Shown here: positions 4,833 through 25,353 of the stretch, in pieces
Layout: every line of letters begins with the position of its first letter
Position numbering within the stretch: position 1 is the first letter of the stretch
NCBI GenBank assembly: GCA_031394795.1
Contig: JANNUB010000300.1
Location: forward strand, 1 to 43,100
Direction: 5' to 3'
Source: Ignavibacteriota bacterium
GTDB taxonomy: Bacteria > Bacteroidota > Ignavibacteria > UBA10030 > UBA6906
DNA: 43,100 nt
Notes under the pieces: generated by a model
Told to the model about the DNA's origin: nothing
What the model saw: only the letters and a program-made list of their open reading frames with translations
Database searches by the model: none
Position numbers and translations under genes: made by a program

Positions 4833-5477
4833 TCACGCACCAATCAGCGCTCTGATATCATCATTCACACTCTCGATCGCCGCCATACCGTCCACATCTA
4901 CAATGACGCCGCGCTTCTTGTAGAAATCGAACACCGGTTCGGTGGACGAGTGATACACCTTTAATCGTTTGCGGACCGTTTCGGGTTTGTCGTCATCGCG
5001 CTGCATGAGCTTTCCACCGCACGAAGGGCACGGAGTTTTCAGCGTCACGCCGTCGGTAAGCTTGTTGAAGATCTTTCCGTCCCGCGTGCACATGAGGCGC
5101 GCACTGAGACGCCGGATCACTTCGTCGGCGTTCACTTCGAAGTTGATGACTTTGTAGTTCTTGATGCCAAGCTCGTCGAACAGGCCGCTCAGTGCTTTCG
5201 CCTGGTCCACTGTCCTCGGAAATCCATCGAGGATAAATCCTTTCGCGACTTTGGGCGATGTGAGAACGACGCGCACGATCTCGATCATGACGTCATCCGG
5301 CACAAGCTGGCCTGCATCCATGATCGCTTTTGCTTTCTTCCCAAGCTCCGTCCCTTCGGCGACTGCGACACGGAGCATGTCGCCGGTGGAGATATGTGGG
5401 ACGTCGAATTCCCCGGCAAGAAGTTTTGCCTGTGTTCCTTTGCCGACACCCGGCGGCCCGAACATGATAATTCGCAT
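4833..5477 (-). CDS. adk: adenylate kinase (long form with Cys4 lid)
   Basis: P-loop MFGPPGVGKGTQ, and a lid with C..DG...CPSCGG. Confidence 0.97.
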   Translation of the reverse strand: MRIIMFGPPGVGKGTQAKLLAGEFDVPHISTGDMLRVAVAEGTELGKKAKAIMDAGQLVPDDVMIEIVRVVLTSPKVAKGFILDGFPRTVDQAKALSGLFDELGIKNYKVINFEVNADEVIRRLSARLMCTRDGKIFNKLTDGVTLKTPCPSCGGKLMQRDDDKPETVRKRLKVYHSSTEPVFDFYKKRGVIVDVDGMAAIESVNDDIRALIGA

Positions 5478-5501
5478 TGCAATCTTTCGTCAAAAATGGA
5501 T

Positions 5502-6641
5502 TTATGCTGAAACGAGCAGTGCTGAAGGGCGATGAGTCGCGAGCCGCGCCCGGCGGGCATCCTCTTTCGATGTTATGACGGCAAGCTGCCCGCATGCGGC
5601 ATCGATATCTTCACCCGCGCTGCTTCGCACAAACACGTTGAGATTATGCGCGCGAAGGCGATCGGCGAGTTGCTGCGTTCGCGGCGAAGATTTCATGCCT
5701 GCCCCTATGCCCGTAAACGTAATGTCGTGGTACGGAATGATGTTGATCTTGCATGGAACGCGTCTCGCTATCGTGATGAGTTGACGCACTTCGTATTCCG
5801 AATCGTTCACGCCGTCAAAGAAAATGTATTCATACGTGACGCGCTTCTTGGTTTTGCGGTGATAATACTCAAGTGCCGGCATCAACACGTCGAGGGGGAA
5901 TTTTTTGTTGATGGGCATCAGCTTCGTCCGCGTTTCGTTTACCGCACTGTGCAGCGACACTGCGAGCCTTGCCTTCACTCCATCATCTGCCATCTGCCGA
6001 ATGTTGTCCGCCCAGCCCGCGGTTGAGATCGTGATGCGCTTTGCGGGAAAGTTCATTCCACCGATCATAATTTCGACCGCGTTCATCACATTGCGGTAGT
6101 TCATCAGCGGCTCGCCCATGCCCATGAACACGATATTCGTGATGGGTCGCTCGCTTACGCGGCGAATCTGCACGACTTGATCTATGATTTCTCCTGCGCT
6201 CAGATTGCGAAGGAATCCCATCGTGGCTGTCGCGCAGAACTTGCAGTCGAGCGGGCATCCTACCTGACTCGAAATGCATAACGTGAGCCGGCGCTGTTCT
6301 TCTTCGTTCGTCGCATCGTCGCCGCGAAACGCGAGCCGCGGCGGAATGAGCACGCTTTCCACATTCAAGCCATCACGCAGCGCGATCAAGAATTTCGTCG
6401 TCGCATCGCGACGTGAGCAGTGCGTTCCTGCAATCGTCACCCCCTCGATGTAGGCAGACTGGATCAAATGCTCGCGAAAACTCTTCGCGAGACTCGACAT
6501 CTCGCCAAAGTCCCTCACATCTTTCGTGTAGAGCCACTCGAACAGCTGTTTGCCGCGATAGCGTTTCTCGCCAATTCGTTCAGCAACATCGGAAAGCTCT
6601 TGGAGGGTCAGGCCCAGCAGGTTGTAGCGCGGAGCAGTCAT
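5502..6641 (-). CDS. rlmN: 23S rRNA/tRNA (adenine-C2)-methyltransferase, radical SAM
   Basis: The motifs CISSQVGCPLDCKFCATATMG and GMGEPL, plus overall collinearity, fit RlmN. Confidence 0.93.
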   Translation of the reverse strand: MTAPRYNLLGLTLQELSDVAERIGEKRYRGKQLFEWLYTKDVRDFGEMSSLAKSFREHLIQSAYIEGVTIAGTHCSRRDATTKFLIALRDGLNVESVLIPPRLAFRGDDATNEEEQRRLTLCISSQVGCPLDCKFCATATMGFLRNLSAGEIIDQVVQIRRVSERPITNIVFMGMGEPLMNYRNVMNAVEIMIGGMNFPAKRITISTAGWADNIRQMADDGVKARLAVSLHSAVNETRTKLMPINKKFPLDVLMPALEYYHRKTKKRVTYEYIFFDGVNDSEYEVRQLITIARRVPCKINIIPYHDITFTGIGAGMKSSPRTQQLADRLRAHNLNVFVRSSAGEDIDAACGQLAVITSKEDARRARLATHRPSALLVSA

Positions 6642-6718: not shown

Positions 6719-6745
6719 AAGCCTCCGAGAAAAGCTCAGAGGCTT
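6719..6745 (-). terminator. Candidate intrinsic terminator downstream of the OMP/lipoprotein genes
   Basis: 7-bp stem aagcctc/gaggctt with a 13-nt loop. On the minus strand it is followed by the T-rich ttcttgtttt. Confidence 0.45.
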
Positions 6746-6764: not shown

Positions 6765-7322
6765 CTACGGCTTCACGTTGGAATCGACCTGAAGGAAGAC
6801 GTCCATACACACGTTAAAGTTCGCAGTTACGGCCGGCCCAGCTCCTTGAGCTCGAAGTACAGCAACATTCGGCAGACTATTGAAACTCGTGAGGCCTGAA
6901 AGCAAGCTGCTCAACGCGACCGGATTGTAGGTGATCAATCCCCCCGAGTTGCGCAGCGAAACTCCGGCTGAGAAGGTTTCGTACTGCCCGCTAAACCTGA
7001 GCAACCTGGTTTCCGGTTGGCTGTCAAAGCGAACGTACACATCGCCGCTGACAATACCCTCTGGATGCGGGTGCGTGACACTAACGCGAACGTCATAGAT
7101 TCGGAGGGCCTGGAAATTCTCGCGGAAATCGGACGGGATCAGACCCTTAACGCTGATTTGCCCTGTTGAGCTGTTGAACGAGCCATTGCCCGTATTGATC
7201 GTCGCGCACCCGGAGATCGGATCGGCATCAACAGAAACCGTGATCGGATCATAGAGGCAGTCGAAGCCCGTCGTCGTCATCACAACAACGACAAGAACAA
7301 GAAGAAGAAGTTTTGTTTTCAT
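6765..7322 (-). CDS. Uncharacterised secreted protein / putative lipoprotein, copy A (paralog of 8397..8963)
   Basis: Hydrophobic signal MKTKLLLLVLVVVVM followed by Cys22. It shares with copy B the motifs C..D.I.VSV...PI, LIP, R(I/L)YD(V/F)(R/K)V, LLRF/ILRF, LPNV(A/T)V and (F/Y)(L/I)Q(V/A)D. Confidence 0.75.
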   Translation of the reverse strand: MKTKLLLLVLVVVVMTTTGFDCLYDPITVSVDADPISGCATINTGNGSFNSSTGQISVKGLIPSDFRENFQALRIYDVRVSVTHPHPEGIVSGDVYVRFDSQPETRLLRFSGQYETFSAGVSLRNSGGLITYNPVALSSLLSGLTSFNSLPNVAVLRAQGAGPAVTANFNVCMDVFLQVDSNVKP

Positions 7323-7356
7323 ATAAACACTCCTGAATTTTTTTTGCGGTGTTGAA

Positions 7357-8271
7357 TTAGAAACCGAAGCCGATGCTTGTCGAGATACTCGTCACCGAAC
7401 CGAAGTTCAGATCTCCATGCAGATGAACAACGCCGAGATTCAGCGCTGCCCCAACTGTCCCACGCACTTTGTCTTTTCCTTCAAACGTAACGCTCACGTT
7501 CTGGCTACCGCTCGCAGTAGAAGTGAAATTCAAATCCATGCTGTTCTTCGTATAGCCGAAGCCGCCGTACAATTCGAGAATCGAAAATGTCTTGCTGACC
7601 TGCGGTCCGGCGTAGAAGCTGGAAACGCTAATGTAATCGCCAAAGGTGATCTTGTTATAGAAAATTCCAACGGCAATATGAACCGGCGGTTCTCCTTCGC
7701 CAAAGTATTGGCTAACGCTATGGCGCCCCCCGATGCCCCAATATGTTATCTTCGGCAAGCCGCTGATTTCGGGAACTGGAAACCCTCGTATGATCAACTC
7801 TGTCCCTTGCACGTGTCCGATGGTGGCTTGCAGCGCCACGAGCGGGAAGATGGGAAGATCATCGACAGAACCACCGCTTCCGGCATAGCTCAGTCCGGTC
7901 GCCGCATCCGTTACAACGGTTACTTCCTTCTTACCAAACACGGTTGCGGTGTTAAAGGTCTTTTGTGCAAACCCTTCCGGCGTTGCGGCATCGTAACTCT
8001 TCAAATCGTCGGAAAGAAGAGCGCCCATGCCGACAATGTTGATGGAGAGATTAAAGCCGCTGGGGGGGATGTCGGCTGAACGGTACCAGCCTGCCGTCAT
8101 GTTGGCAGCAAACAGATCCTGGAGTGGCTGAACATAGCCTTGCACCGTTGTCGCATTGAAGCTTTTGAGCGCTTTCTCGAGCGAGCTTTCCGCGTGCACT
8201 GCGGGAACGAGAACGAGCAGTGTAGCAAGCGATGCCCCTGCAAGTTTCCAGATGTGGTTCATACACTTCAT
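7357..8271 (-). CDS. Uncharacterised putative outer-membrane beta-barrel protein, copy A (paralog of 8987..9904)
   Basis: Signal peptide MKCMNHIWKLAGASLATLLVLVPAVHA from the internal ATG at 8271. There are alternating hydrophobic strands and a C-terminal aromatic end ...SIGFGF. Copy B shares the motifs GYV.PL.D.F.ANM.AG.Y.SA.IP, TAT(V/I)FG, G.G.RHS(V/I)SQY and LYGG.G. Confidence 0.75.
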   Translation of the reverse strand: MKCMNHIWKLAGASLATLLVLVPAVHAESSLEKALKSFNATTVQGYVQPLQDLFAANMTAGWYRSADIPPSGFNLSINIVGMGALLSDDLKSYDAATPEGFAQKTFNTATVFGKKEVTVVTDAATGLSYAGSGGSVDDLPIFPLVALQATIGHVQGTELIIRGFPVPEISGLPKITYWGIGGRHSVSQYFGEGEPPVHIAVGIFYNKITFGDYISVSSFYAGPQVSKTFSILELYGGFGYTKNSMDLNFTSTASGSQNVSVTFEGKDKVRGTVGAALNLGVVHLHGDLNFGSVTSISTSIGFGF

Positions 8272-8396
8272 ATCAGCACCTCGTGTTTTGTTGAGTGATT
8301 GTTGGGGAGCATGAAGAAATATATCCTTCGTGGAGGAAGATTGCAACTCCATGAATGTGCAAATCTGTCTCTGCTTCTTTCGCCGCCTCACGTAAG

Positions 8397-8963
8397 TCAC
8401 TTAAGCTCTGCATCCGCCTGAATATACAACTCGATATGAACCGTCAGGTTGTTCGGGACGGGGGAGGGAGCAAGGTGGCCTAAGGTCGAGACGGTGACAT
8501 TCGGAAGAGGGCTGGTGGTAAGTGCGCGAAGGATCTCGTTTATACCCTCCGGCTGCGGGGTGAGATATGCCGAGCCTGTCAGAAGAGACTGCGGGGTGTA
8601 GAAGGCAGACCATGGTGCGGTTCCGGTTTCGGGGAATCTGAGGATCGGTTTGGCTTCTCCGCTGGCCACACGGATCGCTGCAGTGCCCGCTATCGCACCG
8701 GCGTATTCGCCTTCCACTCTGACTTTGAAATCATAGAGTCTTCCTTGCCGGATCCTGTTTTTGTACTGGACGGGTATGAGACTGTCGAGGTTTATTGTTG
8801 CCGCTGCGACAAAGACCGTGTTCGTTCCGAGTTTGAATCGCGCAACGATAGGATTGAGATTCACCGATACGAGCACCCCGTCGTTCACGCATGATGAGCC
8901 CATGAGCGCCAGGGAGAGCACCAACCCTGTGAGAAGAACCAATAGTCTATGTTTCAACTGCAT
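8397..8963 (-). CDS. Uncharacterised putative lipoprotein, copy B
   Basis: Start chosen at ATG 8963 (MQLKHRLLVLLTGLVLSLALMGSSC). The Cys sits at the same position relative to the conserved VSV..PI block as in copy A. Confidence 0.75.
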   Translation of the reverse strand: MQLKHRLLVLLTGLVLSLALMGSSCVNDGVLVSVNLNPIVARFKLGTNTVFVAAATINLDSLIPVQYKNRIRQGRLYDFKVRVEGEYAGAIAGTAAIRVASGEAKPILRFPETGTAPWSAFYTPQSLLTGSAYLTPQPEGINEILRALTTSPLPNVTVSTLGHLAPSPVPNNLTVHIELYIQADAELK

Positions 8964-8986
8964 TTTCTTTCTGCTGCACGACACCG

Positions 8987-9904
8987 TCAGAACCCGAAGC
9001 CGATCCCTCCAGAGAAATGCTGAATGGTGCCGAAGTTCGCGTCCGCGTACACTTTGATTGCCTGCAGGTCAATCATAAGCCCCGTAGTTGCGCGGAAAGT
9101 GTTGCCGCCGTCAATCGTTGCGTTCACGAGCATTGGCGTCACGATGCCATTTGCGCTGTAGGTGTAGTGCAGCCGCATTGTGCTCGTTTCCCATCCTGCG
9201 CCGCCGTACAAGGTGAAAAGCAGAACGCTCTTGCTGAACTGAAGATTTATAGCGGTTCCTTCAAGCTCAAGAATGTTGCCGACAGAAAAATTGGAATAGA
9301 AACCACCGAGGGAGATGTCAAGAGGACATTGCGGAATGTACTGGCTGATGCTGTGGCGAATCCCGGCGCCGAACAAACGTGAAGGCGGAAGTTTGTTGCT
9401 GGAGAGCGAGGGCGTTGAGATATATCGTAGGAATGCCTGAGTGCCGAGCACCGTGCCGATCGTGATTTGCGGTGTGAACAGCGGAAAGTAATTCGTGTTG
9501 AGCATGCCGTCGGATACTTTGTACTGCATTCCCGATTGCGCGTCTATGAACGTCGTTCCTTTGCCGCCGAAGATCGTTGCCGTCCTGTAAGATCCTCCTT
9601 GTGGAACAAACCCCGCCGGCAATTTCGCCTCGTACGTCCGATGCTCTTCGCGGACAACCGACGCCATAGCAACCAGATCAACTCTGACATGAAAGCCGTC
9701 ATCCGGGATCGCCGCGGAATGATACAAGCCAGCGTTCATGTTCGCGCCGAACATATCACCTAATGGATGGACATAGCCTCTTACCTCTTCAGGTGTGAAC
9801 TGCTGAATAGTGATTTCCAATTGGGATTGTGACCGAGCATGAGGCGCTGCAAGGAATACAAGCCAGAAACCAAATTGCTGAAACCGTTTCCACGATATTG
9901 TCAT
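8987..9904 (-). CDS. Uncharacterised putative outer-membrane beta-barrel protein, copy B
   Basis: Signal-like N-terminus FGFWLVFLAAPHARSQ, C-terminal GGIGFGF, and collinear with copy A along its whole length. Confidence 0.75.
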   Translation of the reverse strand: MTISWKRFQQFGFWLVFLAAPHARSQSQLEITIQQFTPEEVRGYVHPLGDMFGANMNAGLYHSAAIPDDGFHVRVDLVAMASVVREEHRTYEAKLPAGFVPQGGSYRTATIFGGKGTTFIDAQSGMQYKVSDGMLNTNYFPLFTPQITIGTVLGTQAFLRYISTPSLSSNKLPPSRLFGAGIRHSISQYIPQCPLDISLGGFYSNFSVGNILELEGTAINLQFSKSVLLFTLYGGAGWETSTMRLHYTYSANGIVTPMLVNATIDGGNTFRATTGLMIDLQAIKVYADANFGTIQHFSGGIGFGF

Positions 9905-10144
9905 GATTCTCCCCTAAAATGTTGAAAGAAGCAACACTGCTCATCCCCCCGTTGCATGAACTCGCCAACACTAGCAGACTTGATATAGAGAACGTACAGG
10001 CTGGAATTTGAACTGAGGATCAGGATGGTGAGAGCCTTGGAGTTTTCAAGGAATCAGGTGTCTTCCCGCCAAATTCTACGATTAAGGTAACACATGAGGA
10101 ACAGAAAAGCAATAGGCAAAAAGACGTAAATCTAAATTTTTTTG

Positions 10145-11107
10145 CTATTTCTCTTTTACGGAATTCAGGAGGGATTCGAGGTCTCTTGGCAGGTTTGAAT
10201 CGAAGAACATTTTCTCTTTTGTCGCAGGATGAATGAAGCCGAGCGTTTTGGCGTGAAGCGCCTGGCGATGAAGAATCTTGAGAAGCTGCTGCACTTGGGC
10301 TTTTTGCTTTTGCGAACCAGAACCGGCAACAATTTGCCGACCGTTGTAGGTCGGATCGCCGAAGACAGGATGACCAATGTGTGCGAGGTGAACGCGAATC
10401 TGATGTGTCCGCCCAGTATGCAATTTGAGCGTGATGAGGGAAAGATACTCGAACTGCTCGATGACACTATACTCCGTGACGGCATGTTTGCCGTTTGCCA
10501 CGACGGCCATTTTCTTTCGGTCCGATTTGCTTCGGCCGAGACTCGCTTCGATGATGCCTTTCTTCTCCCGGAACGTTCCCCATACAAGCCCCAAATATTC
10601 CCGCGAAACAGTTCGCACGGAAAACTGTCTTGCAAGAAACGCATGCGCCGCGTCCGTCTTCGCAATCACCATCACCCCCGAAGTGTCTTTGTCAAGACGA
10701 TGCACGATGCCCGGACGTGTCTCATCATTCAGTGTCGAAAGATGATTACAATGATACAGCAACGCGTTCACAAGCGTGCCGGTGTAGTTTCCGTACGCTG
10801 GGTGCGTCACCATTCCAGCAGGCTTGTTCAAAACAAGGAGGTTCTCATCTTCGTACAGAATGTCGAGAGGGATGTTTTCCGGGAGCGCTTTTTGTGGAGG
10901 GGGCTTCGGAAGTGCGATACGAATCACTTCGTTGCCGGATACCTGGTGGCTGGAGCGTACTTTTTTTCCATCAACCTGCACCGCGCCTTCTTCGATTGCG
11001 CGCTGGACTTTGTTCCGGGTTGCGTTTTGGATGTGATGTGTAAGGAAGAGATCGAGCCGTTCCTTTTTCTTGCCTGCGGGAACGACGATTTCAATTTCGT
11101 GTGGCAT
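10145..11107 (-). CDS. rluD: RluA-family 23S rRNA pseudouridine synthase (RluD-like) with an N-terminal S4 domain
   Basis: Motifs HRLDKDTSGVMVIAKT and RTHQIRVHLAHIGHPVFGDPTY. Confidence 0.92.
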   Translation of the reverse strand: MPHEIEIVVPAGKKKERLDLFLTHHIQNATRNKVQRAIEEGAVQVDGKKVRSSHQVSGNEVIRIALPKPPPQKALPENIPLDILYEDENLLVLNKPAGMVTHPAYGNYTGTLVNALLYHCNHLSTLNDETRPGIVHRLDKDTSGVMVIAKTDAAHAFLARQFSVRTVSREYLGLVWGTFREKKGIIEASLGRSKSDRKKMAVVANGKHAVTEYSVIEQFEYLSLITLKLHTGRTHQIRVHLAHIGHPVFGDPTYNGRQIVAGSGSQKQKAQVQQLLKILHRQALHAKTLGFIHPATKEKMFFDSNLPRDLESLLNSVKEK

Positions 11108-11118
11108 TGAAGGAACCG

Positions 11119-11727
11119 CTACTGCGGCGAGTTTTCCGGCACGGGAGCTTTTTCAGATGAAACAGACACCAGTGCCGGTGCATCGGCAGCTTCGCGGGTA
11201 TGACGATGCTGAACAAAGAGGAGTATGAAAATGCCGATCGTTACTGCAGCATCGGCAACGTTAAACACCGGCCATCGCGAAAGCGAATAGCCAAGAACAT
11301 TGATATCAAAAAAATCAACATCGAAGAAGTCCACGACTCTCCCGTAGAACAAAGGTGCTTCGTTGAAGATAACCCCGTAGAAGGTCCTATCAATGAGATT
11401 TCCTATGGCGCCACCAAGAATAAGAGCGAGAGAGAGTCTGAATAAAAGCGCATCGTTCCGCGCCCGATACAGGTAGTAGTAAATCGCAATGCTGAGGGCT
11501 ATGGAAAAAAGGGAGAAGAACAGCTTTCCGCCAATATCAATCCCGAACGCCATGCCCGGATTCTCAATATACGTGAGCCGAAAAAAATCCCCCAGCACCG
11601 GTTTACTGAGACCGTATTGCATTCCATAGATATTGATGCCGAGCGAGGAAACGTTGATGCCCTTTACCCACAGCTTCGAGAGCTGGTCAACAGCGACGAT
11701 GAGGAGGGTGAGCCAGAGAACGCGCAC
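11119..11727 (-). CDS. lspA: lipoprotein signal peptidase (signal peptidase II)
   Basis: Motifs YIENPGMAFG, GGAIGNLIDR and WPVFNVADAAVTIG. Confidence 0.93.
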   Translation of the reverse strand: MRVLWLTLLIVAVDQLSKLWVKGINVSSLGINIYGMQYGLSKPVLGDFFRLTYIENPGMAFGIDIGGKLFFSLFSIALSIAIYYYLYRARNDALLFRLSLALILGGAIGNLIDRTFYGVIFNEAPLFYGRVVDFFDVDFFDINVLGYSLSRWPVFNVADAAVTIGIFILLFVQHRHTREAADAPALVSVSSEKAPVPENSPQ

Positions 11728-11734
11728 GAAGACC

Positions 11735-12259
11735 TCAGTTCTTCTTCATCTTCGCAAGCGCGAGGCGTCCTCGGGCACACGGCATGTTCGTGTTCTTGTA
11801 CTCCGCGCATGTTTGGGCGGTCGGTACGGCTTCGAGTCGCTCTTTGGGAACCAACAGTCTGCAGGTACGGCAGAGACCGTACGTGCCGTCCTCGATGCGC
11901 AGCAACGCATCATCCAGCTGGGTGACGAATTTGCTTCCACGCGACGCAAAGAGAAATGTTTTCTCGCGTTCCATCGCGTCGGTTCCCTGCTCCATGTGCA
12001 TCGAGTAGGTCGAGCTTTCCACAACGTACTCGCCCGTCATTGTGTCCATGATGCTTTCTTTGAGATTGTCGAGCTCTTCGACTGTCTCTTTGCGCTTTTC
12101 AAGGATCAACTCTTTGAAATGGCGCAGATCGCGAGGTCCGTAGCCTTTCGGCAGAGTCATTTTGATGACCATCGTTTTCGATTTTTTCGCAGACGCTTTG
12201 ACTCTGGCTTTTCCTTTGGGCGTTTTCTTTTTCGGTTTTTTTACTTTCGCTTTCGCCAT
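11735..12259 (-). CDS. TraR/DksA-family zinc-finger protein with a Lys-rich N-terminal tail
   Basis: C-terminal DGTYGLCRTCRLLVPKERLEAVPTAQTCAEY (CxxC...C). It sits in the common ileS-dksA-like-lspA arrangement. Confidence 0.8.
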   Translation of the reverse strand: MAKAKVKKPKKKTPKGKARVKASAKKSKTMVIKMTLPKGYGPRDLRHFKELILEKRKETVEELDNLKESIMDTMTGEYVVESSTYSMHMEQGTDAMEREKTFLFASRGSKFVTQLDDALLRIEDGTYGLCRTCRLLVPKERLEAVPTAQTCAEYKNTNMPCARGRLALAKMKKN

Positions 12260-12283
12260 GAACTTTGTTCGCTCCTTGTGTTG

Positions 12284-15200
12284 TTAGATTCTTTTCTCGA
12301 TGGAAATGTCCGCCGATTCGCCGTTGATATCCTGCGTATGGAATTCTCTCCCTGCGATGAGCTCCGAATGCAGTTCAACGGCAAGTGTTTCTGTTTTGAT
12401 GTACCCACTCAATGTTTGCAATGCCCGTGCGAGTTTCTCCGGAGCGCGGCAGCCGATGGTAATCCGATCCGTCACTTCGAAACCGGCGTCCTTGCGCATG
12501 TTCTGAATGCGGTTGACGAATTCGCGCGCAAATCCTTCATTCACCAGATCCTCCGTCAATTCCGTGTCGAGCGCGACAGTCAGTCCTCCCTCTGATTCGA
12601 CCAGCCAGCCCTGAATGTCTTCGCGCAGAATTTCGATGTCTTCCTTCGCAATTGTGAACGAAGAACCGTTCACCCGAAGCGTCATCGAGCCAATGTTCTC
12701 CAGCTCACCAATCTCGGCGCCATTCATCTCCTTGATTCGCTCGGCAATATGTTGTACGGATTTGCCGAACTTCGGCCCGATGGATTTGAAATTCGCTTTC
12801 GCCCTCTTCTTTACGATTCCCGAATCATCAGTGACAAACTCGATTTCCTTCACGTTGATTTCATCGAGAATGACGTCTTGCATCAACTCGACTTCATGCC
12901 GCTCCTTCTCGCTTACAATCGGAAGAATAATGCGCCTCAGAGGCTGGCGGACTTTCAAATTCGATTTCATCCGCATCGCACGAACAAGCTCGACAATCTT
13001 CCTCGCTCGTTCCATCTTCACTTCAAGCCCGAGGTCAACGGCATTCAATTCAACGTCGGGCATCAATGCAAGATGAACCGATTCGTGCGGCTCACGCTTC
13101 GTTACGGAGTTGAGATTGCGATACAGTTCCTCAGAGATAAACGGGGCGAACGGCGCCGAAAGTTTCGCGACTGCAATCAAGCATTCGTACAGTGTTTGAT
13201 ACGCCGCCGTCTTGTCTTTGCCAATCTCACTTTTCCAGAAGCGGCGACGATTACGACGAACATACCAATTCGAGAGCCTGTCCACTGTGAATTCACTCAC
13301 ACTCCTCGCCGCTTTTGTAACATCGTACGCTTCCATGAATTCCGTATAGCATTTGATGAGTGAATTCAACTCCGACAGAATCCATCGGTCAATCTCCTGG
13401 CGCTCTCCTACGGGAATTCGCGGTTCAGCATAACGAGACTTATCGATGTTGGCGTAGAGCGCGAAGAACGCGTAGGTGTTTACAAGCGTTCCGAAAAACT
13501 TCCGCTGCACATCACCAAGCTCATCAACATCAAATCTTGTCGTGCGCCAGGGCGGACTCGACGTAACAAGATACCAGCGCGTCGTATCGGCGCCGTATTT
13601 TGCAATCGTCTCGAACGGGTTGACGGTGTTGCCGAGCGACTTCGACATCTTCCGCCCTTCTTTATCGAGAATCAGTTCGTTGACAATGAGGTTTTTGTAC
13701 GCGGGCTTGTCGAAAAGAAACGTTCCGATTGCATGTAACGAATAAAACCAGCCGCGCGTTTGGTCAATGCCTTCACAAATAAAATCCGCGGGATACTGTT
13801 TGCCCGAATCAATAAGTTCCTTGTTCTCAAACGGATAGTGCCATTGTGCAAAACTCATCGCGCCCGAATCGTACCATGCGTCAATCAGCTCCGGCGTTCG
13901 CTTTATCGTTCCGCCGCAGGAACATTGCCACGTGATTTCATCAACGAAGGGCTTGTGCAAATCCAGCGGGATCCCTGAACCCTGAACCCTGAACCCTGAA
14001 ACGCTTTCCAACTCCGCAACGCTTCCCACACACTCCTGTTTCTTGCACTCCTCGCACACCCAAATCGGCAGAGGAGTTCCCCAAAATCTATCGCGCGAAA
14101 GCGCCCAATCTTTATTTTCCTCCAACCAATTTCCAAAACGTCCTTCGCCAACTTCCGGTGGCACCCAATTGATTTGCTTGTTCAGCTCAATCATCTTCGC
14201 CGCGTACTTCGTCGTGCTGATGTACCACGACTCGCGCGCGTAATATAACAGCGGCGTCTTGCATCGCCAGCAATGCGGATAGCTGTGAGTGATTGTTTCT
14301 TTGCGATAGAGAATACCGCGCTGTTTCAGATTTTGGATGATAAGCGGGTCGGCGTCCTTCACAAATTTTCCCGCGAAGTCAGTCACTTCACTTGTGAACT
14401 CACCGCTCTTGTTCACCGGGTGAATGGTCGGCAGATTGTATTTCTTCGACGTTTGATAATCGTCTTCGCCGTACGCGGGCGCCATGTGAACGATGCCGGA
14501 GCCATCCGCAGTTGTTACGAAATCCGCTTCGACAACATAGAATCCTTTTTTATCAACAGGATGATAATTGAAGATGCGTTCGTATTCGAGACCTGCGAGT
14601 TGCTTGCCTTTCATTTTCTCCAACACAGCATACTCGCCTTCAAGCGCGCTCAATCGCGCTTCCGCGAGAATGAGCTTTTCGCCTTTATGTTCAACTTTCA
14701 CATAATCAATATTAGGATGAACTGCGAGCGCAACATTTGAGATGAGCGTCCACGGTGTTGTCGTCCAAACGAGGAACGACGTGTCAGGTTGCGACTTGAG
14801 TCGCATCTTCACATACACGCTCGGGTCTTTCACATCTTCATAGCCAAGCGAGACTTCATGCGACGAAAGCGGCGTTTCGCAACGCGGGCAGTACGGCTGA
14901 ATCTTGTAGCCCTTGTAAATCATACCCGCGTCGAAAAACTTTTTCAGCGACCACCACACGGACTCGATGTAATCGTTCTCGAACGTGATGTACGGCTTCG
15001 AAAGGTCAACCCAATAGCCCATCTGCTCCGTCATCTGTTCCCACTCGGTTTTGTATTTCCAAACAGACTCGCGGCATTTTTGATTGAATGCCGCGACGCC
15101 GTACCTCACAATTTCCTCTTTGTGTTTGAAGCCGAGTTCCTTCTCCACTTCAATCTCGACCGGAAGTCCGTGCGTATCCCATCCCGCTTTGCGATGCACT

Positions 15201-15454
15201 TGAAAGCCGCGCATCGTTTTGTAGCGGCAGACCAAATCCTTCAGCGTCCGCGCCATCACATGATGAATGCCGGGCCGCCCGTTCGCGGTCGGCGGACCTT
15301 CATAAAACGTGAAGCCCTTCGCGCCTTCGCGAGTCGAAATGCTCTTCTCAAAAATTCCGTTCTCTTTCCAGAATTTCAGGATTTCTTTTTCGACTTCGGG
15401 ATAGGAAATTTTTTCTGTGAGTTCTTTGAACATCATCTTCTTCTCTATTGTCAT
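12284..15454 (-). CDS. ileS: isoleucine--tRNA ligase (type 2); the true start may be the ATG at 15436 or 15433 (MMFKEL)
   Basis: HIGH-type PPTANGRPGIHH, KMSKS (KMSKSLGN), and 1056 aa collinear with IleS. Confidence 0.97.
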   Translation of the reverse strand: MTIEKKMMFKELTEKISYPEVEKEILKFWKENGIFEKSISTREGAKGFTFYEGPPTANGRPGIHHVMARTLKDLVCRYKTMRGFQVHRKAGWDTHGLPVEIEVEKELGFKHKEEIVRYGVAAFNQKCRESVWKYKTEWEQMTEQMGYWVDLSKPYITFENDYIESVWWSLKKFFDAGMIYKGYKIQPYCPRCETPLSSHEVSLGYEDVKDPSVYVKMRLKSQPDTSFLVWTTTPWTLISNVALAVHPNIDYVKVEHKGEKLILAEARLSALEGEYAVLEKMKGKQLAGLEYERIFNYHPVDKKGFYVVEADFVTTADGSGIVHMAPAYGEDDYQTSKKYNLPTIHPVNKSGEFTSEVTDFAGKFVKDADPLIIQNLKQRGILYRKETITHSYPHCWRCKTPLLYYARESWYISTTKYAAKMIELNKQINWVPPEVGEGRFGNWLEENKDWALSRDRFWGTPLPIWVCEECKKQECVGSVAELESVSGFRVQGSGIPLDLHKPFVDEITWQCSCGGTIKRTPELIDAWYDSGAMSFAQWHYPFENKELIDSGKQYPADFICEGIDQTRGWFYSLHAIGTFLFDKPAYKNLIVNELILDKEGRKMSKSLGNTVNPFETIAKYGADTTRWYLVTSSPPWRTTRFDVDELGDVQRKFFGTLVNTYAFFALYANIDKSRYAEPRIPVGERQEIDRWILSELNSLIKCYTEFMEAYDVTKAARSVSEFTVDRLSNWYVRRNRRRFWKSEIGKDKTAAYQTLYECLIAVAKLSAPFAPFISEELYRNLNSVTKREPHESVHLALMPDVELNAVDLGLEVKMERARKIVELVRAMRMKSNLKVRQPLRRIILPIVSEKERHEVELMQDVILDEINVKEIEFVTDDSGIVKKRAKANFKSIGPKFGKSVQHIAERIKEMNGAEIGELENIGSMTLRVNGSSFTIAKEDIEILREDIQGWLVESEGGLTVALDTELTEDLVNEGFAREFVNRIQNMRKDAGFEVTDRITIGCRAPEKLARALQTLSGYIKTETLAVELHSELIAGREFHTQDINGESADISIEKRI
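13973..14000. repeat. Heptanucleotide tandem repeat (ccctgaa)x4 inside ileS
   Basis: Counted directly. On the coding strand it is (ttcaggg)x4 and encodes part of SGFRVQGSG. Confidence 0.95.
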
Positions 15455-22771: not shown

Positions 22772-23419
22772 ATGAAGAATTACCTCGTCGAATTCATCGG
22801 CACGTTTTTTCTCGTGCTCGTCATCGGGCTGACGGTTGTCGCGCCGACGTCGGGTGTGAGCGCGCCGGCAGCGGACCACATGGCGCCGCTTGCCATCGGT
22901 ATCACACTGATGGTGATGGTGTATGCGGGAGGGCATATTTCGGGAGGCCACTACAATCCCGCCGTGACGCTCGCTGTGTGGATGCGGGGCAAGTGTGATA
23001 CCAAGGACGTCGTGCCGTACATGACTGCGCAAATCGCTGGCGCCATCGTCGCCGCGCTCGTTGTTGGATTCCAGAAGGGAAATCCCCTGAATGCAGCAAC
23101 GGCTCCGGATGTGGCACGTGCGATCCTGAACGAGTTCCTCTTCACGTTCGCGCTCGCATATGTCGTGCTCAATGTTGCTACGTCAAAGAAAAATGCCGGC
23201 AACTCTTACTATGGACTTGCGATCGGCTGCACGTTGCTTGTCGGGGCGTATGCAGGCGGCGGGATCTCGGGCGGCGCGTACAATCCAGCGGTTGCCGTAG
23301 GAATCTCGACTATGGGCTTGAGCGCGTTTAGCAACATCTGGATTTTCTTGGTCGGAAATTTTCTCGGCGGCGCACTCGCCGCAGTAGTGTACAAAATCGT
23401 TAATCCTGAAGAGAATTAA
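22772..23419 (+). CDS. MIP-family channel (aquaporin)
   Basis: Two NPA boxes: HISGGHYNPAVTLA and GISGGAYNPAVAVG. Confidence 0.93.
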   Translation: MKNYLVEFIGTFFLVLVIGLTVVAPTSGVSAPAADHMAPLAIGITLMVMVYAGGHISGGHYNPAVTLAVWMRGKCDTKDVVPYMTAQIAGAIVAALVVGFQKGNPLNAATAPDVARAILNEFLFTFALAYVVLNVATSKKNAGNSYYGLAIGCTLLVGAYAGGGISGGAYNPAVAVGISTMGLSAFSNIWIFLVGNFLGGALAAVVYKIVNPEEN

Positions 23420-23492: not shown

Positions 23493-24323
23493 ATGTCAAG
23501 AGCATTGATTATCGGCGGCGGAATTCTCGCATTTCTATTATTGAGCTATTTGTGTGCAACGATGCACGGACCGGCGTTGACAGCAACGACGCCTTTGGCG
23601 GCGCCAAGCTTGTGGGCCACATTAGAAGATGGAAAAACAATCTTGCGGGGTACATTGCCCGACGAAGCGGCGAAAAACACGATCGTTGCAGAAGCTGCGA
23701 AGATGTATGGCGCGGAGAACGTGACCGATGAACTGAAAATAAGCAACACCGTTGGCAAAGCGGCATGGATGCCTGCCGGGCTCGGAATGTTCGGCTTGCT
23801 TAAGGAGGGGGTCAAACGGGCTGGCTTCGGGGTCGAGAACGGCAAGCTAACGGTGAACGGCATTGTGAAGAACAGTGCCGCGGAAAGCAAGCTGCTCGCC
23901 GACGCGCGCATCGCCTTTCCCAATCATGATCTCATCGACAACGTTGATGTCGAGGCTGCGGCTGTGCAGCGCAACATCGGAGAGTTCCTGGCGACGAGAA
24001 CGATCGAGTTCGCAACAGGAAGCGCGGTGATTCTTCCGCGCGGCAAAGCGATTCTCGACACCGTCGCAATGATGCTGTCTGAAGCGCCCGATGCGCTCAT
24101 TGAGGTTTCGGGGCACACCGATAACCAGGGGAACGACGACGCAAACATGATCTTGAGTCAGCGTCGTGCCGATGCAACGGAAGCGTATCTCATCAGGAAA
24201 GGCGTTGCCGATGCGCGCATGACCTCGAAGGGATTTGGCGTAGCGACGCCCGTTGCGGACAACGCTACAGCGGAAGGTCGTCAGCGCAACCGCCGCATCC
24301 GGTTCGGCTTGAGAGAGAATTAG
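23493..24323 (+). CDS. Membrane-anchored OmpA-family protein with two BON-like modules (ArfA-like architecture)
   Basis: N-terminal TM ALIIGGGILAFLLLSYL. Two G.(I/V).L.G.....K...A...V.(D/N).L blocks. C-terminal OmpA_C motifs IEFATGSA...VSGHTDNQG...N..LSQRRA..V..YL...G......GFG...P.A.N.T..GRQRNRR. Confidence 0.88.
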   Translation: MSRALIIGGGILAFLLLSYLCATMHGPALTATTPLAAPSLWATLEDGKTILRGTLPDEAAKNTIVAEAAKMYGAENVTDELKISNTVGKAAWMPAGLGMFGLLKEGVKRAGFGVENGKLTVNGIVKNSAAESKLLADARIAFPNHDLIDNVDVEAAAVQRNIGEFLATRTIEFATGSAVILPRGKAILDTVAMMLSEAPDALIEVSGHTDNQGNDDANMILSQRRADATEAYLIRKGVADARMTSKGFGVATPVADNATAEGRQRNRRIRFGLREN

Positions 24324-24522: not shown

Positions 24523-25353
24523 ATGAACTTTTTCTTCCCGCATTTTTTATGCCTCTTGTCCGCCGCTCTCATCGGATGGTTGGTAGGTTGGCTGTTGGGC
24601 AGGCTTGGTATGAGTCGCCCATCAGAAAGTCTCGATGTAGAGCTGGCGGGCAAGATGCGTTTATTGGAGGATGAGCGGAATCGTCTTCAGGTCGAAAATG
24701 CCGCTCTCAAGACAAACCTCACGTCGCACGAGTCATTGGCGAGAGAATACTCGTCGTTCCGCGCGCAACTCGACAAGGCAAATAGTGAATTGAGCGAGGC
24801 ACGCTCTGCCGCTGCAGAACGCAATGCTCTGCGCGGCGAGTTGGAGGCGGCTCTCACGAAGCTGAGTCTGCTCGAACAAACTCAACCGAACAACGAGCTG
24901 TTGCGCCTGGAGCTTGACGGCACAAAGAAAATGCTCCCAACGTACGAAGCAGACCTGCGCGAACAAGAAGAAGAGGTGGCGCGCCTGCGCAGCCGAATCG
25001 GTGAGCTTGAATGGCTTCGATGGGATTTGAAGAACATTCGGTTCCCTGTCGACAGCGCCGAAATCACTCCGCAGGCGGAAGCCGTTCTCGATAATGTGCT
25101 TCCTGCGTTGAAGAGCCTGAATGGTGTGAAAGTAGATATCGAGGGGCATACAGATAACATTGATAGCGAAGAACACAACCGCGATCTGAGTCAGCGTAGA
25201 GCGGAAGCAGTACGCACATACCTGATTGAGAGGGGCGTTCCCTCACATAAGCTAACGGCAATCGGCTACGGCGCCTCCCACCCCATTGCAGACAATGGCA
25301 CGGAGGAGGGACGACAGATGAATCGCCGCATTGAATTCGCTGTGAACCATTAA
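24523..25353 (+). CDS. Membrane-anchored coiled-coil OmpA-family protein
   Basis: TM LCLLSAALIGWLVGWLLG, a heptad-rich segment of about 130 aa, and OmpA_C motifs IRFPVDSAEI...IEGHTDNIDS...N..LSQRRAEAV..YL...G......GYG...P.ADN.T.EGRQMNRR. Confidence 0.88.
   Translation: MNFFFPHFLCLLSAALIGWLVGWLLGRLGMSRPSESLDVELAGKMRLLEDERNRLQVENAALKTNLTSHESLAREYSSFRAQLDKANSELSEARSAAAERNALRGELEAALTKLSLLEQTQPNNELLRLELDGTKKMLPTYEADLREQEEEVARLRSRIGELEWLRWDLKNIRFPVDSAEITPQAEAVLDNVLPALKSLNGVKVDIEGHTDNIDSEEHNRDLSQRRAEAVRTYLIERGVPSHKLTAIGYGASHPIADNGTEEGRQMNRRIEFAVNH
24551..24658 (+). repeat. Second copy of a 108-bp direct repeat (first copy 24374-24481), 107/108 identical
   Basis: Compared base by base; the only mismatch is aga versus agg. 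The offset is 177 bp. Confidence 0.95.

Follow-up and report, generated by a model that had tools for sequence, protein, structure and literature searches.

Introduction

Outer-membrane barrels paired with lipoproteins, among them LptDE, SusCD, Slam with its surface lipoproteins, and BAM, are central to envelope building, uptake and display in Gram-negative bacteria. To our knowledge, nearly all such pairs have been worked out in Proteobacteria or gut Bacteroides. Here we describe a module of this kind at positions 6765-9904 of a 43,100-nucleotide stretch of DNA from an Ignavibacteriota bacterium (contig JANNUB010000300.1 of assembly GCA_031394795.1; the whole stretch is called the window below), where two tandem units each join a predicted barrel of the Pfam family DUF6588 to a small putative lipoprotein. 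The original prediction, made from the letters of the window alone, had suggested a two-component outer-membrane complex and a candidate undescribed system. That interpretation is supported by our analysis: the pair is a genuine, conserved two-gene module of the outer membrane, of the barrel-plus-lipoprotein kind and so far uncharacterised. A literature search returned no description of a DUF6588 barrel with a lipoprotein partner; the barrel family on its own is not wholly undescribed, as it already has a Pfam entry as a domain of unknown function.

Among described systems, the gene logic appears closest to that of Slam and the type 11 secretion system (T11SS), and the barrel fold appears nearest to those of omptins and autotransporters. 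In Slam loci, a barrel gene adjoins a lipobox gene with an all-beta product (TbpB, HpuA and others), and this adjacency, found for 52% of Slam homologues, is the signature of the system (PMC5449769). Slam, however, is proteobacterial and combines an N-terminal TPR domain with a 14-strand DUF560 barrel, whereas the window barrels belong to DUF6588, occur in phyla of the Fibrobacteres-Chlorobi-Bacteroidetes (FCB) group and are predicted to have about 12 strands with about 35 residues of helix ahead of them; no homology between the two was detected, and the window barrels matched neither DUF560 nor TPR in Pfam at E<=1. The LptD-LptE pair likewise joins a barrel in the outer membrane to its own lipoprotein of about 190 residues, the two being mutually dependent. 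Yet LptD, with 26 strands and about 780 residues, is large enough a barrel to hold LptE inside and LptE has an alpha/beta fold, unlike the window barrel of about 300 residues and its predicted jelly-roll partner, and none of the four window proteins matched LptD (OstA) or LptE in Pfam or NCBIfam.

The remaining comparisons are looser. Omptins (Pla, OmpT), which are 10-stranded, give the best Foldseek match to the barrel, but they work without a partner lipoprotein and the window barrels have no Pfam omptin match. Autotransporter beta-domains (PF03797) and FapF, in which a 12-strand barrel follows a helix, are also among the best fold matches (template modelling, TM, scores 0.32-0.44); here, however, a passenger domain is lacking, PF03797 has no match in the window barrels at E<=1, and neither type V secretion nor the Fap system includes a separate lipoprotein gene. 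In SusC-SusD and other TonB-dependent transporters with lids, the barrel gene directly precedes that of a surface-lipoprotein partner, and the same gene-neighbour logic was used to define lipoprotein lids in Bacteroides, according to the abstract of bioRxiv 10.1101/2023.03.17.533168. The present module differs in having neither a TonB-dependent receptor plug nor a 22-strand barrel, and its small partner is not SusD-like by Pfam.

The pair is conserved across phyla

Positions 6765-9904 hold four co-directional minus-strand genes that form two barrel-plus-lipoprotein units (305 + 188 and 304 + 185 residues), all found as the original prediction had described them:

8987-9904, minus strand: barrel A, 305 residues, DUF6588, signal peptide, C-terminal GFGF (open reading frame and Pfam)
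8397-8963, minus strand: lipoprotein A, 188 residues from an ATG (MQLKH), predicted signal peptide ...LMGSSC, mature start CVNDGVLVSV
7357-8271, minus strand: barrel B, 304 residues from an ATG (MKCMNH), signal peptide ...AVHA/ESS, C-terminal GFGF
6765-7322, minus strand: lipoprotein B, 185 residues, predicted signal peptide ...TTGFDC, mature start CLYDPITVSV

Mechanically, the open reading frame (ORF) of lipoprotein A begins at a GTG at 8984 and that of barrel B at 8400. All four exact products listed above are already in a public protein collection, and independent gene callers have therefore picked identical starts. With these starts, the stop-to-start distance is 23 nucleotides in the A pair and 34 in the B pair, the very values first noted.

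To place the pair in a wider context, one genome per species was scanned with a reduced barrel alignment, which yielded 80 loci whose records are labelled Ignavibacteria or Ignavibacteriota, Bacteroidota, Calditrichota, KSB1, Gemmatimonadaceae, Latescibacterota, Krumholzibacteriota and Eisenbacteria. The Bacteroidota loci come from Cytophagales, Cyclobacteriaceae, Flammeovirgaceae and Bacteroidales; Agaribacillus aureus and Rapidithrix thailandica, both cultured, are among the sources. Counted together with the loci found earlier (86 sources, 94 barrel ORFs), 83 of the 94 barrels, or about 88%, are directly followed on the same strand by an ORF of 150-260 residues, with a median gap between barrel and partner of 18 nucleotides. 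A hydrophobic N-terminus or signal peptide together with a Cys is present in 82 of these 83 downstream ORFs, and the adjacency by which Slam is recognised, a neighbour encoding a lipobox protein, is likewise found for 83 of the 94 barrels. Among the 645 other genes of these loci, only 12 (1.9%) have such an ORF downstream. The adjacency of barrel and partner is far above chance, and the pairing that had been proposed as a check across FCB genomes holds in about eight phyla.

Eleven barrels depart from this pattern. Four of them cannot be judged, either owing to a run of N (L016), the end of the DNA (L025 and L031) or a barrel fragment at a contig end (L002); L032 has a run of N as well, yet its partner is detectable, split by the gap. 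The true solo barrels are seven (L027, L030, L043, L046, L057, L064 and L075), with the barrel at about 4900-5850 in each. They are shortened in the segment equal to residues ~95-135 of barrel B, which marks this segment as a candidate docking region for the partner. A convergent gene lies downstream in four of the seven.

Close relatives of the window carry all four genes in an unchanged housekeeping context. No third conserved component emerged from ORF clustering of the loci or from a Pfam search of 106 flanking genes in the loci outside Ignavibacteria, where the commonest family, Radical_SAM, accounts for 6 of the 106.

The small partners form one fast-evolving family

The description of the two small proteins as paralogues was borne out by an alignment with 26% identity over 175 residues (E=3e-13), in which all the motifs first reported are present (C..D...VSV...PI, R.YD..V, LRF, LPNV.V and Q.D). 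Neither protein has a match in Pfam, NCBIfam or among PDB sequences, and ten distant partners have none in Pfam. Word-indexed homologue searches found 7-16 close relatives per query, among them orthologues of lipoprotein A (P0002-P0010) and of lipoprotein B (P0012-P0017). Even when 1.84 billion representative proteins were searched exhaustively with a profile, only 99 relatives came up at E<=0.001, nearly all of them single-domain proteins of 170-198 residues. Two long proteins from this profile search, P0050 (834 residues) and P0129 (929 residues), match short parts of the lipoprotein profile repeatedly, in 11 and 6 stretches respectively. These could be repeat proteins in which a related strand motif recurs, unless the matches are an artefact of composition.

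Homology between the partners of different phyla is not evident from single searches. A profile of the window-type partner detects only Ignavibacteria-like and Gemmatimonadaceae partners, and an iterated hidden Markov model stalls at 35 of the 86 sources. Clustering by BLAST splits the unique partner sequences into four groups (34, 18, 17 and 6 members). These groups are nonetheless joined by near-full-length profile-profile matches in hhalign, namely between clusters 0 and 1 (96.3%, E=1.9e-9), 1 and 2 (97.7%, E=1.4e-12) and 0 and 3 (92%, E=6.4e-7), and the partners are therefore a single fast-diverging family. Mean pairwise identity is 20% among partners versus 36% among barrels. Across 75 unique mature partners, the Cys is the sole invariant residue and no polar residue is conserved; beyond the Cys, conservation is partial and limited to a few positions with Gly, Phe, Ile or Leu, along with the pattern of the hydrophobic core.

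The Cys anchor of the original description is putative in both copies, which differ in the context of the Cys. Both have a hydrophobic N-terminus and the invariant Cys. Taking the usual lipobox as [LVI][ASTVI][GAS]C, most relatives carry G, A or S at the position before the Cys, and the context in lipoprotein A is GSSC. In lipoprotein B it is GFDC (7247-7258), and this atypical lipobox makes the name lipoprotein a matter of inference for the B protein.

The AlphaFold2 model of lipoprotein A (predicted local distance difference test, pLDDT, 89.2) is an eight-strand jelly-roll beta-sandwich with one helix, whose first strand begins five residues past Cys25. Its top 50 fold matches in the PDB are all viral jelly-roll capsid proteins (TM 0.23-0.38), which reflects a common topology, not relatedness. 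On the same matches, a LolB-like, LptE-like or lipocalin-like fold of the partner was rejected.

The barrels belong to DUF6588

In Pfam, barrels A and B both fall into DUF6588 (PF20230), a family without a known function, and match it over its full length. Against a gathering cut-off of 27 bits, barrel A scores 134 bits (E=8.2e-39, residues 16-305) and barrel B 152 bits (E=2.8e-44), with coverage of profile positions 12-319 out of 319. At E<=1, Pfam gave just one further match, a sub-threshold chance match of barrel B to ATP_synth_reg (E=0.21); NCBIfam gave no significant match for the barrels, and a PDB profile search from the barrel gave a chance match only. With the small proteins without any match, the first impression that neither partner belongs to a characterised family has thus stood up to the profile searches. 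In the literature search DUF6588 found no mention, and PF20230 returned unrelated strings only. Ten distant relatives from the locus set were confirmed as DUF6588 at 123-190 bits. One Eisenbacteria barrel (L070, 576-1484) also clears the Pfam Autotransporter threshold marginally (27.2 vs 26 bits), which may point to a remote connection of the two families.

Barrels A and B are collinear paralogues (37% identity over 295 residues, E=2e-59), and the alignment contains every motif first read from them (GYV.PL.D.F.ANM.AG.Y.SA.IP, G.G.RHS.SQY, LYGG.G and IGFGF). As read from the sequence, signal peptide sites AVHA/E and PHA/RS follow hydrophobic N-termini, and both proteins, at 305 and 304 residues close to the 300 first estimated, end in GFGF. 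AlphaFold2 models barrel B (pLDDT 82.4) with two helices, at 30-37 and 40-59, ahead of 11-12 long strands that end with GFGF, and these two helices carry the N-terminal motif of the family, GY.QP..D..GAN.N.G. A signal peptide, an all-beta barrel and a C-terminal aromatic residue are what is generally expected of outer-membrane beta-barrels, and all are found here.

The best PDB fold matches of this model in Foldseek are all outer-membrane barrels (TM 0.3-0.44): omptin Pla/OmpT, the Legionella Dot/Icm porin, the autotransporter beta-domains of EstA, EspP, Hbp and NalP, and FapF. The top match is omptin Pla (E=7.5e-7, TM 0.40-0.43), with a sequence identity of 7-10% for the omptins. Judged by the model, the barrel is a distinct family, nearest to 12-strand barrels that hold a helix in their lumen. 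Across 91 barrels the conserved polar residues are R162, R183-H184-S185-x-S187-Q188-Y189, Q148 and T157, the invariance of RHSxSQY being inflated by the retrieval of loci with the pattern GxRHS[IV]SQY[FI].

The pair was duplicated as a unit

An old duplication with both copies retained, as proposed at the outset, is corroborated by the relatives. We fetched ten other two-pair loci, several of them near-identical, and in every one an A-type pair comes first and a B-type pair second, with matching types of barrel and partner. Where Ignavibacteria loci have a single pair, it is as distant from A as from B. Matched order and types, together with the equidistant single pairs, show that the pair was duplicated as a unit and that both copies were kept; from these sequence comparisons, the duplication is seen to be restricted to one Ignavibacteria-like clade and to have copied the whole pair. 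The diverged pairs offer a natural comparison of cognate with non-cognate specificity.

A proposed dedicated outer-membrane complex and its alternatives

The reading that we cautiously favour is that each pair is a dedicated, obligate one-to-one two-protein outer-membrane complex, because adjacency, order and spacing persist across phyla while the other neighbours change, and because the pair was duplicated together. In such a complex, the DUF6588 protein, exported via its signal peptide, would insert into the membrane with about 12 strands as a barrel, and its conserved N-terminal helices would probably occupy or close the lumen, like the linker helix of autotransporter beta-domains and FapF. 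The downstream gene would be translated from a shared transcript, and its product, after processing at the invariant Cys, would be anchored to the outer membrane. With a sandwich that starts five residues after the Cys, and hence no tether, the jelly-roll would have to sit against the membrane beside the barrel, presumably flush with it, where it would cap or shield the rim of the cognate barrel. The original prediction had named a plug-in-barrel arrangement among its options, which we judge unlikely on size only, as a folded partner of about 160 residues would face a barrel of about 12 strands. The conserved polar residues lie in the barrel, whereas the partner, having no conserved polar residue, looks like a structural or recognition subunit rather than an enzyme. 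In the lineage of the window, the whole pair would have been duplicated, with each barrel retaining its own partner.

Two signals disagree on which side of the membrane the partner faces. The lipoprotein export signal criterion, at least two acidic residues among the six after the Cys, is used as in PMC12578637. In the mostly Bacteroidota cluster, 12 of 17 partners have at least two (chance expectation 0.16), and across the family Asp or Glu stands at +2 to +5 in 70 of 75 partners vs 0.40 expected, although shared phylogeny makes these counts non-independent. Acidic residues after the Cys and the fast evolution of the partners would point to surface exposure. On the other hand, barrel positions that distinguish A from B are suggestive of periplasmic contact: they fall 9 vs 1 near the predicted periplasmic strand ends, and shared conserved positions 12 vs 19, nearer the outer end (Fisher p=0.009, in a post hoc comparison with the topology taken from secondary structure only).

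This conflict over orientation is one of several points that speak against a dedicated obligate complex. The seven solo barrels show that the barrel can exist alone. The lipobox is atypical throughout the B type, where the partners (P0012-P0017) keep Asp or Glu at -1 of the Cys (GFDC, GFEC and GADC), a context that puts their processing by signal peptidase II in question. Furthermore, loci retrieved by the RHS pattern sample only part of DUF6588. Lastly, distances among barrels and among partners correlate at r=0.87, but we dropped this mirror-tree value as evidence of contact, as shared descent alone explains it.

If the complex is real, it would be a new outer-membrane module for FCB phyla and would give a first functional handle on DUF6588. 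The pair is compact and self-contained, occurs in about eight FCB phyla including cultured Cytophagales, and has one partner that belongs to no annotated family.

A different view of the same pair is that the barrel, instead of being a lasting partner, is an exporter with a single substrate, the neighbouring lipoprotein, which it takes up from the periplasm and displays on the cell surface as a functional FCB counterpart of Slam and type 11 secretion. We think this unlikely, yet much of the evidence is compatible with it. The gene logic matches that of Slam, with an adjacency of about 88% here against 52% there, the barrel is autotransporter-like, and both the acidic residues after the Cys and the rapid divergence of the partners (often seen in surface proteins) would suit a displayed protein. 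Paralogue-specific residues near the periplasmic end and shared ones near the outer end would also fit recognition below and a common path above, and an exporter of this design could, speculatively, reconcile the two signals of orientation. Against it stand the barrel itself, which lacks a TPR domain and is not DUF560, and its lumen of about 12 strands, which cannot pass a folded jelly-roll. Moreover, window lipoproteins A (CVNDGVL) and B (CLYDPIT) have one acidic residue each after the Cys, short of the two of the export signal, a rule that is established in Bacteroidota only. We are accordingly doubtful of the specific proposal of a DUF6588 translocon for a single lipoprotein client, unrelated in sequence to Slam/T11SS and recognising its partner at the periplasmic end. 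Were it true, it would be among the first dedicated surface-lipoprotein exporters proposed outside Proteobacteria, and export of this kind would bear on how FCB bacteria place lipoproteins on their surface, a process that the abstract of a recent preprint describes as not well defined in Bacteroidota (PMC12889592).

It is improbable, in our view, that the barrel is instead an outer-membrane hydrolase modifying lipids or proteins, in the manner of OMPLA, PagL, LpxR or omptins, with its Arg/His/Ser cluster as the active site and the lipoprotein as a regulator or substrate-presenting subunit. The omptin protease Pla is the best fold match, R162, R183, H184, S185, S187, Q188, Y189, Q148 and T157 are invariant across the 91 barrels, and any chemistry must lie in the barrel, as the partner has no conserved polar residue. 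This invariance is, however, partly a product of the search pattern, the TM scores are only about 0.4, and no Pfam match to omptin, OMPLA, PagL or LpxR was found at E<=1. Very unlikely, too, is that the two are merely co-expressed envelope proteins with neither physical nor functional dependence, their adjacency being inherited operon structure: solo barrels and the placement of the module among housekeeping genes with lineage-specific synteny would agree with this, but adjacency, order and short gaps hold over about eight phyla while other neighbours change, the pair was duplicated as a unit with its types still matched, and so stable a gene order is rare without functional coupling.

Locus layout and transcription signals

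The transcription signals around the four genes are few:

6719-6745, minus strand: intrinsic terminator, 11-bp stem with 6 G-C pairs, then a T-rich tail (terminator scan)
8272-8396, minus strand: spacer separating the two pairs, 125 nucleotides, one weak sigma-70-like match
9905-10144, minus strand: intergenic region between rluD and barrel A, 240 nucleotides (from sequence)

The strong terminator sits 20 nucleotides past the stop of lipoprotein B, before rlmN, and closes the four-gene unit. The promoter is presumed to lie in the 240-nucleotide region upstream of barrel A, where the promoter scan, which covers no other promoter types, found no sigma-70-type match. In the spacer, the sigma-70-like match at 8346-8318 agrees at 9 of 12 positions, with a match count in the region not above shuffled expectation. 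Over the whole locus the sigma-70 scan returned nothing above chance, and it may not suit the host organism.

The module is inserted between rluD (10145-15454 block, minus strand) and rlmN (4833-6641 block, minus strand), in a gene block that reads ileS, a dksA/traR-like gene, lspA, rluD, the module, rlmN, adk and a GDPD gene, the neighbours being confirmed by Pfam in the window. This order from ileS to GDPD is kept in all Ignavibacteria-like relatives and not in other phyla. A functional link to lspA, the lipoprotein signal peptidase gene, was considered and rejected, as the synteny is confined to Ignavibacteria-like loci.

Elsewhere in the window

Two other sets of envelope-related genes deserve a brief mention. 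Just downstream of a MIP aquaporin gene (22772-23419) lie two tandem plus-strand genes for OmpA-family proteins of 276 residues each (23493-24323 and 24523-25353), which are alike only in their C-terminal OmpA domain (42% over 124 residues); the first also has a weak BON-domain match. Further along, adjacent plus-strand genes encode large secreted proteins of 1110 (28742-32074) and 497 residues (32081-33574). Each closes with a C-terminal sorting domain for type IX secretion (Por_Secre_tail / FlgD_ig), and the organism therefore has cargo of the type IX secretion system, consistent with the FCB group.

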